Below, one piece after another: positions 18,001-21,000 of a DNA stretch of 52,243 nt. Position numbers: made by a program. This DNA is from Candidatus Sulfobium sp. (GTDB lineage: Bacteria; Nitrospirota; Thermodesulfovibrionia; Thermodesulfovibrionales; UBA6898). The DNA is taken from the NCBI GenBank assembly GCA_037380845.1, contig JARRRI010000004.1, positions 1 to 52,243 of the forward strand, read 5' to 3'. Position 1 is the stretch's first letter. Every line of letters begins with the position of its first letter.

Positions 18001-21000
18001 GTCGGGCATCTTGAGATCGGTGAGTACCAGGTCGAACGGTTCCTCTTCCAGCATCCTGATACCGTCGAAGGCGTTTGCCGCCAGTCTTACCTCGTACCCC
18101 TCCGGCGAGAGGACCCTCTTACAGCTGGTCCTTACGATACTTTCGTCATCGATTACCAGAAGTTTGCCCTTGTTCATATCACATCCGCATAAGCCGGCAG
18201 CCTGACAAGAAAACTGGTCCCCTCACCTGGCCAGGTCTTTACGTCAATTTTACCACCATGCTCCCTGATTATGCCGTGGCTGACGGCGAGCCCCAGGCCG
18301 GTGCCCTTGCCGACCGGTTTTGTGGTGAAGAAAGGCTCGAATATCTTCGCCAAATTCTCATCGCTGATACCCGGACCGGTGTCGTGGAACTCGATTTCAA
18401 CATAGTCCATGTCGTCTTCGTTTACGTTCCTCGTTGAAACGGTGATAGTGCCCTTGCCTTCGATCGCATCCGCTGCGTTCATTATCATGTTAAGGAAGAC
18501 CTGCTGCAACTGGGACGCATCGGCCTTCACCCTTGAGAGGGCGGGGTCGAGGTCGGTGATAAGCTTAATGTCGAAGAAGTCGGCCTTGTTCCTGACGATG
18601 TTGAGGGAATGGGAAAGGACGTCGTTAATGTTCACCGGCGCCTTCTCGGCAGCCGAAGCCCTCGCGAAGCCCAGCAGTCCCTTTATGATATTCGAGCACC
18701 GGTTCGCCTGCTCGATGATCACTTCCACATCCTCCCTCTCTTCGGTGTCCTGAGGCAGGCGCTTCAGGAGGAGATGCCCGAAGGTGACGATCCCCGTCAG
18801 CGGACTGTTTATCTCATGTGCGACGCCGGCAGCCATCCTTCCGAGAGAGGCCAGCTTCTCCGAATGGATGAGCTGGGCCTGCGCCATCCTTATAGCCTCT
18901 GTCTTTTCCTGCACTTTCTTTTCGAGGGTGTTGCCCCATTCGACCAGCTCGTTCTTTGCGGCTTTAAGGTCTGATGTCATTTCATTGAACGCCGAGGCAA
19001 GTTCGCCCATCTCGTCTTTGGTGTTGATCTCGACATGGTAATCGAGGTCTCCGTCGGCCACCTTCTGCATGCCCTGCGCAAGCATGCTCACCGGGGTAGA
19101 GACAAAATTCCACAGGATCGTGCAAAGAACGATCGAGATGATAAAAAGGAATATGAGGATATAAACGGTAATGGCGATGCCCTGCTCCTTCATGCTCTTG
19201 TCCATAAAGGCGAGGGAAAGGTTTGCCTGTACGAGCCCCAGGATCTTCTGAGATTTCCTGTGCACGTGGCACGCCGAGGTGTAACAGGCCGGCTCGTTGA
19301 AGATCGGCTGCACGATGGTCAGGACCCTGGCATTACTGTCTGTCTTGTGTATGAACCAGGTGGGTGTTGACTGCGACTGGCCAGTGGCGGAATGACAGCT
19401 GAGACAGAGGGGGGACTTCATGTCTATAACGGTACCGATCTCCTTTTTCGAAGATGCATAGGCGATCTTGCCGCCGGTGTCGAACACCCGGACGTCCATC
19501 ACTCCTTCTGCGGAACCGATCGCCTCGATTGTCTGCTGCGTAAGGAGTTTCTGGAAGGTGAGCATTCCGTAACGGGTGCTCTTTTTTACGGAATCGACGA
19601 AAGAGGAGCCGTATTTAACCGAATACTCTACCAGTTCCTGCTCCTGGTGTCTGAAGAGGAAATACCAGAATATGGAGCTGCCGACTACCATCAGGGTGCC
19701 GATGGTAAGAATGAGCTTGCCGGTCAGCGAATGGAAGGATTTCTTAACAAGCATTGGCCCACAATGAAGTCATTTGCATCTATTATGCATAAGGTCGGTA
19801 CAAACCTACAAGCCTAAACTTACAAGTTTAATTTTTTCCTTGACAATTTAAGCCAATTGCATCAAATTATATATCGTCATGCCCGGAGCCTTTATGCCGT
19901 CAGCATATTTGCCGATACTGATCTTCCTGATGGTCGCAACGGCCTTTGGAATCGGCGCACTCTTAATCGGCGAGCTATTCAGAATAAAAAGACCCTATTC
20001 CGAGAAATTGATGCCGTATGAGTCGGGCAATCCCCCGGTGGGAGAGCCGCGGCAGAGATTTTCCGTAAAGTTCTATATCATAGCCATGCTCTTTGTGGTG
20101 TTCGATGTGGAAGCGATTTTCCTCTATCCGTGGGCGGTGACGTTTGACAGGATAGGGCTGTTCGCTTTTGTCGAAATGATAATCTTTATAGTGATACTCC
20201 TCGTAGGATATATTTATGCGTGGAAAAAGGAGGCTTTCGTATGGGATTGACAGTCGGCACTTCTTCACCTGCTCTTGTCGAAGTGGACGAAAGGACAAAG
20301 GTCCTTGCGCCCAACGTCATCATCACTACCATCGACAAGATCATCAACTGGGGAAGAAGTTCGTCGTTATGGCCTATGACCTTCGGCCTTGCCTGATGCG
20401 CCATTGAAATGATGACGACGGGATCGTCACACTATGATCTGGACAGGATGGGCATCATCTTCAGGGGCTCACCGAGGCAGGCGGACTTCATGATAGTTGC
20501 AGGCACTGTGACCAAGAAGATGTCTGAGATCGTCCGGAGGGTCTACGACCAGATGCCGGAGCCGAGGTATGTAGTATCCATGGGCAGTTGCGCATGCAGC
20601 GGAGGGATATTCAATACTTACAGCACGGTACAGGGATGCGACACCTTTGTGCCTGTGGATATTTACGTGCCGGGATGCCCCCCCAGGCCGGAGGCCCTTA
20701 TGGAAGGCATCATCAAGCTCCAGGAAAAAATAAGGGCGGAGCACTTCAGATGGAGCCGGTGGAGATGATTCTGAAAGAACGGATCCCCGGTTGAAACCTC
20801 GGGAATGACGGCTACTGGAAGGACTTTCCGCGAAGCAGGCGATTTGAAATCGTAACAGGGATATGGAACCTTTAGAGATTGCAGAAAATATAAGAGAAAA
20901 ATTCCCGGAGGAAGTCCTGGATGTCAGGGAGTTCAGGGGACAGGTTTCGGTCACCCTCAGGAAAGACAGGATTCTGGACGTCTGCCGGCACCTTCACGAT

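Follow-up and report, generated by a model that had tools for sequence, protein, structure and literature searches.

A complex I operon with an in-frame TGA in nuoB

The window, the whole stretch of 52,243 nucleotides analysed here from contig JARRRI010000004.1 of Candidatus Sulfobium sp., carries a nuoA-to-nuoN operon in which nuoB sits between nuoA and nuoC. Pfam matches from nuoA through nuoN uphold the 14-subunit operon described in the survey's finding, from which this analysis set out. The features at the locus are as follows.

19879-20250, + strand: nuoA (PF00507, 129.9 bits); overlaps the start of nuoB
20241-20768, + strand: nuoB, 175 codons plus a TGA stop (NF005012, 258.5 bits)
20394-20396, + strand: in-frame TGA, codon 52 of nuoB, putative selenocysteine (Sec) codon in place of the first of the two tandem Cys ligands of cluster N2
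20413-20429, + strand: putative bacterial SECIS hairpin, stem 20413-20418 / 20424-20429, loop CGGGA at 20419-20423; extends to 20410-20431 with one bulged A
20863-21405, + strand: nuoC (PF00329, 171.3 bits)
21353-22609, + strand: nuoD (PF00346, 398.6 bits), partner of NuoB at the N2/quinone site; start codon not settled
22593-34402, + strand: nuoE, F, G, H, I, J, K, L, M and N, with a Pfam match for each ORF

Codon 52, flanked as FGLA-U-CAIEMM, is the only TGA within the nuoB frame. The survey had taken the gene to be one frame of 175 codons interrupted at this codon, and translation bears this out: among the NuoB/NDUFS7 family profiles used (NF005012, TIGR01957 and PF01058), the read-through product scores 258.5 bits against NF005012 (cut-off 116) and 247.7 bits against TIGR01957 (cut-off 142.7), and mouse NDUFS7 matches it with an E value of 6e-65. 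The 51-residue piece 5' of the TGA and the 123-residue piece 3' of it each match NuoB separately. AGGAGG precedes the ATG at 20241, and homologues share the MGL start.

Codon 52 falls at a ligand position of cluster N2

Codon 52 aligns with Cys (TGC or TGT) in 30/30 Cys-form orthologues, and full-length Cys forms are up to 87% identical to this NuoB. In an alignment of query residues 23-167 with residues 56-201 of 6gcs_K, U52, C53, C117 and C146 fall, in alignment coordinates, on C85, C86, C150 and C180 of Yarrowia NUKM, which are the N2 ligands of that protein (PMC8042128). The TGA is located, as the survey had proposed, at the first Cys of the tandem pair. The placement of a putative Sec52 at an N2 ligand site is supported by this alignment; because the residue would take the place of the first tandem Cys, it should ligate N2 together with Cys53, Cys117 and Cys146, iron ligation by Sec52 being predicted from homology only.

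Purifying selection at the protein level acts on both sides of the TGA. It includes the residues C, A, I and E that precede the next ATG, for which the amino acids at codons +1 to +4 after the TGA are 100% conserved while codon entropies range from 0.32 to 1.05 bits. Contigs from four independent public runs have no other letter at 20394-20396, and the contig of a related strain keeps the TGA despite 24 differences over 298 bases.

The hairpin downstream of the TGA

The nuoB hairpin, UGACGA-CGGGA-UCGUCA, has a 6-bp stem and a loop that begins 22 nt after the UGA. It fits the geometry of the bacterial SECIS (bSECIS) model, which has a loop of 3-9 nt, a stem of 4-16 bp, a G in the first two loop positions and a UGA-to-loop distance of 16-37 nt (PMC13188914). 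At -5.4 kcal/mol bare and -6.5 kcal/mol extended, it lies above the energy limit of the same model (MFE of -7.5 kcal/mol or lower; PMC13188914), while the hairpins of other clades reach -8 to -13.6 kcal/mol. Geometry and energy together agree with the model in 43 of 77 distinct TGA sequences, and a loop that starts 20-25 nt after the UGA with a G in its first two positions is found in 65 of the 77, against 5 of 30 Cys forms. On thermodynamics alone the nuoB hairpin is unremarkable: in a shuffle test z = -1.45, with 18 of 200 shuffles folding equally well, and the minimum-energy fold of a wider stretch favours another hairpin that is not conserved. An earlier fold of the stretch gave z = -1.83, but for a different, non-conserved hairpin, and an Rfam scan of 20300-20520 returned nothing near gathering score. 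Two fdhA-like selenoprotein genes of the same genome have hairpins too, with loops (GGUCU and GGGCU) that follow their UGA at a distance of 18 nt.

The evidence that is decisive for the selenoprotein reading is comparative, and concerns the stem codons and the contrast between TGA and Cys forms. Because the register of the hairpin differs between clades by 1-3 nt (pair sums 53, 56, 57 and 58), counting pairs at fixed columns would mislead, and the hairpin was therefore tested by synonymous-site entropy. The stem codons ACG ACG / TCG TCA show zero entropy in 34/34 distinct TGA genes that encode M-T-T-G-S-S (68-96% DNA identity), whereas 51 other codons of at least 4-fold degeneracy in the same genes average 1.58 bits with a minimum of 0.67, a contrast that is not a formal probability because the 34 genes are related. 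All six stem pairs form in every one of these genes while the codon of the loop Gly varies, and frozen stem codons recur in four further TGA clades. Among 21 Cys forms with the same MTTGSS peptide, by contrast, one of the six pairs forms in 18, two in one and five in two. The hairpin-forming codons are thus under selection in the TGA forms only. The survey had reported a hairpin with compensatory change; the hairpin at 20413-20429 stands, but covariation at fixed columns does not, the clades differing in both hairpin and register.

Distribution of the TGA form

With a DNA pattern slightly wider than the earlier F-G-L-A-TGA-C-A-I-E-M-M, we found 107 stretches in the one-genome-per-species collection, in line with the 106 previously counted, and fetched 80 of them. 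The carriers include Nitrospirota, Thermodesulfobacteriota and Chloroflexota, anaerobes of sediment, groundwater and hydrothermal settings; the isolate Thermodesulfatator autotrophicus S606 has the TGA form together with selB. The frame is open on both sides of the TGA in all 80 loci read, exactly 123 codons follow it in 70, and nuoA lies upstream and nuoC downstream in 69.

Across the 317 genomes of the order, the pattern search placed a TGA at the same codon at 81 sites in 78 genomes and 43 of 122 genera, while the reversed pattern, run as a control over the same genomes, gave 0 matches. A single TGA had been reported for 54 of 150 NuoB matches, a figure that we did not recover, finding 17 among the best 150 of 718 matches; the pattern count is the firmer one because the listed NuoB matches are the best 150 of 718. 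When the pattern search was crossed with the NuoB search, again for the best 150 of 718 matches, the TGA form proved to be the sole NuoB-family match in 12 genomes that are 91-100% complete.

Outside the order, selB scores over the cut-off in 25 of 27 TGA-bearing genomes, the two without such a match being L069 and the Udaeobacter MAG L074. Inside the order it is present in 76 of 78 TGA genomes, with no match in G297 and G074 (87% and 84% complete); co-occurrence here is uninformative because 304 of the 317 genomes have selB. Exchange between Sec and Cys is repeated on the gene tree: a tree of 109 genes implies at least six Sec/Cys changes, four of them forced by starred branches, and two Cys forms with 5/6 stem pairs nest inside a Sec clade. 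The Udaeobacter locus was set aside as a further lineage: its branch is long, its TGA is followed by 163 codons, and no selB match in its genome exceeds the cut-off.

Selenocysteine machinery, the code and a second complex I

The genome was said to have selA, selB, selD and tRNA-Sec, and all four were found: selA and selB as profile matches of 620 and 331.6 bits, selD with an in-frame TGA of its own, and tRNA-Sec as the sole tRNA with anticodon UCA among 37 tRNAs. TGA is a normal stop in this genome and also the commonest: of 1727 open frames with at least 300 codons, 845 end in it. ARAGORN identified a second long tRNA, a 94-nt tRNA-Cys with an 8-bp acceptor stem, U73 and anticodon GCA. The survey was right that a selC*-type tRNA-Cys exists, but its suggestion that UGA could in part be read as Cys is unlikely to hold, since anticodon GCA should read UGY and not UGA. 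Recoding of UGA as Cys by selC* tRNA-Cys (PMC5389517) would be expected to involve the opal anticodon UCA and, next to selC*, a second selB (selB*) and/or cysS*. No opal-anticodon (UCA) selC* tRNA-Cys was found among this genome's tRNAs, and no selB* was found either, a single match in the genome lying over the selB cut-off and the rest being other GTPases.

A second complex I operon, all-cysteine and intact, lies on another contig. Its nuoCD is fused and the two NuoB proteins of the genome are 44% identical. Given this second operon, the cell would not depend wholly on selenium for complex I.

Discussion

Taken together, these observations favour a model in which this nuoB truly encodes a selenoprotein and carries a bacterial SECIS, a reading of the sequence data to which we assign a probability of about 0.85. 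The sequence-level features of a bacterial selenoprotein gene, as far as they are testable, all appear to be present or nearly so. According to this model, SelB with Sec-tRNA(Sec, anticodon UCA) would bind the small hairpin, which has its loop 22 nt past UGA-52, and UGA-52 would be decoded as selenocysteine to give a full-length NuoB of 175 residues. Sec52, standing for the first Cys of the strained tandem pair, would then, together with Cys53, Cys117 and Cys146, ligate the [4Fe-4S] cluster N2, the last before quinone, in the 14-subunit complex I. The selenolate, being more acidic, more polarisable and a better leaving group, might shift the reduction potential of N2, affect redox-linked protonation or the lability of the ligands, or change how well the cluster resists damage.

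UGA-52 could instead be read as Cys, by a selC*-type tRNA-Cys or by a near-cognate tRNA-Cys, which would yield an ordinary all-Cys NuoB. The long tRNA-Cys of this genome, with its 8-bp acceptor stem and U73, speaks for such a reading, as does the fact that selC* tRNA-Cys is known from Nitrospirae and Thermodesulfovibrio and that its UCA form decodes opal as Cys (PMC5389517). The anticodon found here pairs with UGC/UGU and not with UGA, however, anticodon UCA belongs to tRNA-Sec alone, and the presence of one selB-class gene means that there is no selB* copy. Moreover, Cys needs one base change, as in lineages L153 and L156, so that retaining a costly UGA and a hairpin in 78 genomes in order to encode Cys would not be parsimonious; we consider this decoding very unlikely. 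An error of sequencing or assembly in a metagenome-assembled genome, for which no support was found, is refuted by the agreement of the four public runs at 20394-20396 and by the recurrence of the TGA throughout the order and the species collection.

Two further explanations are both extremely improbable in our judgment. The gene might be broken or split, translation stopping at UGA-52 and at most a C-terminal piece of 119 residues being made from the ATG five codons on; the fragments of 118-119 residues in public collections and the second, intact complex I of this genome would be compatible with this. Such a piece would be without both tandem N2 ligands, however, and selection argues against it, because the four codons between the TGA and this ATG keep their amino acids while varying in codon and the 51-codon part upstream of the TGA is likewise conserved. 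Frames open on both sides in 80/80 loci, the 12 near-complete genomes in which the TGA form is the only NuoB (for the best 150 of the 718 matches) and the persistence of the TGA state across 43 genera point the same way. Downstream hairpins can promote stop-codon read-through in general, and UGA-52 might be passed independently of selenium, for example by a near-cognate Trp or Arg tRNA stimulated by the hairpin. Yet every Cys form has at codon 52 the same invariant Cys, a metal ligand, and Trp or Arg could not ligate N2; in addition, the Sec machinery accompanies the TGA in 25/27 genomes outside the order, and the loop G and spacing of the hairpin are as in bacterial SECIS elements.

This NuoB shares with canonical NuoB (NDUFS7, PSST, Nqo6) its family, its operon position and the four N2 ligand positions including the tandem pair, but it differs in having TGA, followed by a conserved hairpin, where the canonical first tandem ligand is encoded by TGC or TGT. 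Read as a selenoprotein, it would resemble the [NiFeSe] hydrogenases, which have Sec in place of a metal-ligating Cys within the hydrogenase/complex I superfamily, and Sec and Cys forms coexist among relatives there as here; in those enzymes, however, Sec belongs to the catalytic large subunit, a relative of NuoD, and binds Ni, whereas here it would belong to the relative of the small subunit and bind a [4Fe-4S] cluster. Sec variants of Group 4 [NiFeSe] hydrogenases were reported in silico in 2026 (PMC13582414), and a term search of the text of that report gave no occurrence of 'NuoB', 'complex I' or 'NADH'. In FdhA selenoproteins, as proposed here for nuoB, the Sec-UGA is followed by an in-frame bSECIS hairpin, and Sec is a direct metal ligand; there, however, Sec binds the catalytic Mo or W of a pterin cofactor, whereas in NuoB it would bind an electron-transfer cluster, and the nuoB hairpin is shorter and weaker.

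Sec adjoining Cys in a cluster-binding motif is also predicted for other Fe-S-binding selenoproteins, among them HgcB, the Fe-S cluster domain protein and, with a 'CU' motif, the 2Fe-2S-binding selenoprotein of the Csac_0668 family (PMC13188914). These proteins are small, uncharacterised or accessory and known from prediction only, and none is a core respiratory subunit with a structurally defined cluster. That one genome encodes the same machine twice, once with Sec and once with Cys only, has a parallel in Methanococcus, where the Vhc hydrogenase replaces Vhu under selenium limitation (PMC13518236), but the two complete nuo operons here are distant paralogues and not a close Sec/Cys pair. 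Sec197 of HdrA was rejected as a precedent for a Sec Fe-S ligand, since it belongs to a Cys-Sec pair and is not a cluster ligand (PMC13518236).

In the literature searchable to us we found no described NuoB with a TGA at the tandem ligand and a hairpin. The survey's statement that NuoB is missing from current selenoprotein inventories agrees with its absence from the whole of Table 1 (119 selenoprotein families) of a 2026 review (PMC13188914); in one BSepDB supplement, perhaps not the table of families, none of the terms NADH, Nuo, quinone and PF01058 appears. In public collections the gene is present as fragments of 118-119 residues named NADH-quinone oxidoreductase subunit B, and neither of the two fragments of the Thermodesulfatator autotrophicus gene nor its read-through product has an exact match in the collection. 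By cutting nuoB to a 119-residue fragment in 78 of 317 species-level genomes, about a quarter of the order, annotation pipelines introduce a misannotated complex I into metabolic reconstructions.

In complex I, cluster N2, with its unusual tandem-cysteine ligation, hands electrons over to quinone, and the role of the two residues is still debated. On our reading, one of the four N2 ligands in this core subunit of complex I is encoded by a selenocysteine codon, in this anaerobe and in about a hundred other species, and selenium would then sit where quinone receives the electrons. A natural enzyme with Se at the tandem ligand would be a ready-made experiment, with 77Se as a handle for spectroscopy, in which Sec and Cys can be compared among orthologues that are up to 87% identical. 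The selenoprotein inventory, mostly thiol oxidoreductases, would gain a protein of central energy metabolism, and the respiration of anaerobes in sediment, groundwater and hydrothermal settings would be tied to the supply of selenium.

Only tentatively, and with more doubt than belief, do we suggest that in many anaerobes selenium has a working role at the end of complex I where quinone is reduced, with the selenolate retuning N2: the potential of the cluster, redox-linked protonation or the dissociation of a ligand, or the ability to withstand damage. If so, N2 would be the first natural, structurally placed Fe-S cluster with a genetically encoded selenium ligand, and 77Se would serve there as a natural probe of how electron transfer is coupled to proton pumping. 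Such retuning of N2 could be of advantage with low-potential quinones or in reverse electron flow, and cells with a second, all-Cys complex I might switch between the two according to selenium supply.

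Results

A single nuoB frame with an in-frame TGA

Translation confirms the survey's finding that nuoB is one continuous frame interrupted by a single TGA.

20241-20768, + strand: nuoB, 175 codons followed by a TGA stop, with one in-frame TGA
20394-20396, + strand: the in-frame TGA, codon 52, in the context FGLA-TGA-CAIEMM

The read-through product scores 258.5 bits on the NCBIfam NuoB model NF005012 (cut-off 116). Taken separately, the 51-residue part preceding the TGA and the 123-residue part following it also match NuoB. Among solved structures, the best matches are NDUFS7/PSST chains from mitochondrial complex I (E 6e-65) and bacterial NuoB/Nqo6. 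By Pfam, nuoB overlaps the end of nuoA upstream and is followed by nuoC to nuoN. The operon is flanked upstream by a HAMP/HisKA/HATPase sensor kinase gene on the opposite strand (18174-19754, -) and downstream by an amidohydrolase-family gene (34622-35629, +). Gene callers cut the TGA form, which public collections contain as fragments of 118-119 residues. Contigs from four public runs carry no alternative letter at 20394-20396, and a related-strain contig keeps the TGA despite 24 differences across 298 bases.

The wide spread claimed for the motif was likewise borne out, the one-genome-per-species collection yielding 107 stretches with the degenerate pattern F-G-L-A-TGA-C-A-[I/V/M]-E-M. All 80 loci fetched from these have an open frame both before and after the TGA, which is followed by exactly 123 codons in 70 loci and by 127-163 in seven, while three reach the end of the available DNA. 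Both nuoA upstream and nuoC downstream lie on the same strand in 69 of the 80, and at least five of the remaining 11 are interrupted by contig ends. Within the Thermodesulfovibrionales, 78 of 317 genomes carry the pattern; they represent 43 of the 122 genera and 6 of the 13 families, and a reversed-pattern control gave no match among the 317 genomes. Cross-reading of the order-wide NuoB matches with the pattern search identified the TGA form as the sole NuoB-family match in 12 genomes that are 91-100% complete (G245, G260, G294, G012, G064, G067, G104, G107, G111, G112, G227 and G298). Three further genomes of the order (G011, G040 and G078) have two distinct nuoB genes with TGA at the codon 52 equivalent, and loci L032 and L084 are both TGA nuoB genes of one Chloroflexota MAG.

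Selection on the protein and on the hairpin codons

Selection was assessed in 34 distinct TGA genes with M-T-T-G-S-S encoded past the UGA (pairwise DNA identity 68-96%, median 77%). Around the TGA the residues are invariant and the codons free to vary, with Pro at -7 encoded by four codons (1.98 bits). The C, A, I and E that separate the TGA from the next ATG show 100% amino-acid conservation at codon entropies of 0.32-1.05 bits, which argues against a gene split at the TGA with a restart at the ATG, since these conserved codons would then go untranslated. The stem of the downstream hairpin behaves differently.

20413-20429, + strand: putative bacterial SECIS (bSECIS) hairpin, UGACGA-CGGGA-UCGUCA, 22 nt spacing

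Its codons ACG ACG ... TCG TCA have zero entropy and its six pairs are complete in all 34 genes, with the Gly codon within the loop variable (GGA, GGT, GGC), compared with a mean of 1.58 bits and a minimum of 0.67 for 51 other conserved codons of at least 4-fold degeneracy, contrasts that are not formal probabilities because the genes are related. Other synonymous sites are saturated, so the time for divergence was sufficient. The same peptide is encoded by 21 of 30 fetched Cys-form orthologues of the order, with codons ACC/ACA/ACT, TCA/TCC and AGT/AGC; here, one of the six pairs forms in 18 genes, two in one gene and five in two. These last two, L153 (genome G238) and L156 (G255), are both nested in the Sec clade of the gene tree, consistent with recent conversions from Sec to Cys in which the hairpin persisted as a fossil. 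Freezing of stem codons recurs in four further clades (MAAGSS, MAVYAS, MAVGAS and MAAGAS), each with another peptide and another hairpin, where loop positions are free or changes preserve G-U. The RNA-level selection suggested by these frozen stem codons is the strongest result of our analysis.

Passages of PMC13188914 describe bSECIS elements as having a loop of 3-9 nt with a G within its first two positions, a stem of 4-16 bp, 16-37 nt between UGA and loop, and a minimum free energy no higher than -7.5 kcal/mol. In geometry the window's hairpin conforms to this model, but its energy is -5.4 kcal/mol (-6.5 when extended with a bulge) and it is unremarkable against shuffles (z = -1.45); over the wider stretch, the fold of minimum energy is a different hairpin that relies on variable codons. 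Hairpins of other clades are far stronger (-8 to -13.6). The geometry is satisfied by 65 of 77 distinct TGA sequences versus 5 of 30 Cys forms, and geometry together with the energy limit by 43 of 77 versus 2 of 30. Hairpin registers differ between clades, and what had been described as compensatory change is instead the swap of one hairpin for another at the same place.

Decoding of UGA in the genome

The window's genome, G000 (3.18 Mb, 104 contigs, estimated completeness 100%), has the Sec machinery previously reported: selA (620 bits) adjoins selB (331.6 bits) on contig C22, selD itself contains an in-frame TGA, and the tRNA-Sec (73 bits) is the only one of 37 tRNAs found by ARAGORN in the whole genome to carry anticodon UCA. 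Two fdhA-like genes have one TGA each, with hairpin loops GGUCU and GGGCU 18 nt past the UGA.

G000 C20:72243, C29:36972 and C13:49478: selD and the two fdhA-like genes, each with an in-frame TGA followed by a hairpin

TGA ends 845 of the 1727 open frames of at least 300 codons and is thus not reassigned in G000. The survey had also noted a selC*-type tRNA-Cys by which UGA might in part be read as Cys, and such a tRNA does exist.

G000 C62:31154-31247 (locus L004, 1501-1594): long tRNA-Cys, 94 nt, anticodon GCA, 8-bp acceptor stem, U73

On the tRNA-Sec model it reaches 47.3 bits, and it matches the description of selC* tRNA-Cys, whose anticodons are GCA or UCA according to passages of PMC5389517, where opal decoding as Cys is tied to the UCA form and extra selB*/cysS* genes. 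Because the anticodon here is GCA and G000 has only one selB-class gene, Cys insertion at UGA-52 is unlikely. Reading as Sec would instead follow the standard bacterial route of SelB, Sec-tRNA-Sec and an in-frame hairpin.

Exchange of selenocysteine and cysteine

A gene tree of 109 genes (79 TGA and 30 Cys forms), aligned without the TGA and hairpin codons and excluding two loci with short flanks, implies at least six Sec/Cys changes, four of them forced by starred branches, against a shuffled mean of 26.7. Across a long branch lies a divergent TGA group of three Chloroflexota-labelled loci and two labelled Thermodesulfobacteriota or 'Proteobacteria', so Sec at codon 52 is not limited to one NuoB clade. 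Outside the order, selB scores above cut-off in 25 of 27 TGA-bearing genomes, with no such match for L069 and L074. The latter, from a MAG labelled Candidatus Udaeobacter, has a very long branch, 163 codons past the TGA and an unconvincing hairpin; given its atypical sequence and the lack of a selB match above cut-off we did not count it as an additional TGA lineage, and it may be a pseudogene, result from mis-binning of the contig or involve another mechanism. Within the order, 304 of 317 genomes have selB, so co-occurrence there is no test; the incomplete TGA genomes G297 and G074 gave no selB match.

Discussion

The TGA codon is confirmed and, at the sequence level, our results support the interpretation that UGA-52 of nuoB is read as Sec, to which we assign a probability of roughly 85%. 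Residues 56-201 of Yarrowia NUKM (6gcs_K) align with residues 23-167 of NuoB and, with a one-residue gap placed after query position 125 from the printed alignments of other chains, the aligned coordinates carry U52, C53, C117 and C146 to C85, C86, C150 and C180, the four residues given as N2 ligands in PMC8042128. NUKM C85 lies near the quinone-binding Tyr144 of NDUFS2, as a passage of PMC8042128 describes. The placement of U52 on C85 makes the TGA the codon of the first tandem ligand of N2, where by homology Sec52 would bind iron. Compared with Cys, Sec has a lower pKa and higher polarisability, its bond to iron is longer and weaker, and it is more easily re-reduced once oxidised. Sec at N2 could shift the potential of the cluster, alter how the strained tandem ligands behave upon reduction, or protect the cluster. 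In the window's NuoB clade, an additional Cys lies two residues past the third N2 ligand (20589-20597, codons 117-119), the motif being GSCACSGG in Sec and Cys forms both, versus GSCAN in mitochondrial chains and the genome's second NuoB, on contig C7.

NuoB is indeed missing from selenoprotein inventories in so far as none of the 119 families in Table 1 of PMC13188914 (2026) is listed as NuoB, PF01058 or 'complex I'. The words 'NADH' and 'Nuo' are absent from searched main text of deep-Sep (PMC12013277) and of BSepDB (PMC13326102, 111 families) and from one supplement of the latter. A 2026 paper on Group 4 [NiFe] hydrogenases concerns Sec in their large subunit, and 'NuoB', 'complex I' and 'NADH' are absent from its searched text. 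PMC5736913, matched on selenocysteine and NuoB terms, proved unrelated on a term search of its text. The 14 families matched in NCBIfam release 20.0 include no selenoprotein-specific NuoB model. Full-text searching of one literature library found no paper on selenocysteine in NuoB, with matches on both terms judged from titles and the openings of abstracts. PF02508 we take to be a family of Rnf/Nqr membrane subunits, distinct from those of complex I. It is the family under which the sole NADH entry of Table 1, 'NADH:ubiquinone oxidoreductase subunit E', is placed (PMC13188914).

Another complete operon for complex I lies elsewhere in G000.

G000 C7 (locus L169, 1035-15885): nuoA, B, fused CD, E, F, G, H, I, J, K, L, M and N

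The NuoB encoded there is all-Cys (FGLSCCYVEM) and shares 44% identity with that of the window. With two such operons, a selenium-dependent use of two complex I enzymes is possible, if hypothetical. In the 12 genomes where the TGA form is the sole NuoB, the only complex I would hinge on reading UGA. We regard the predicted Sec-NuoB as a new family of selenoproteins and the enzyme containing it as a new complex I variant.
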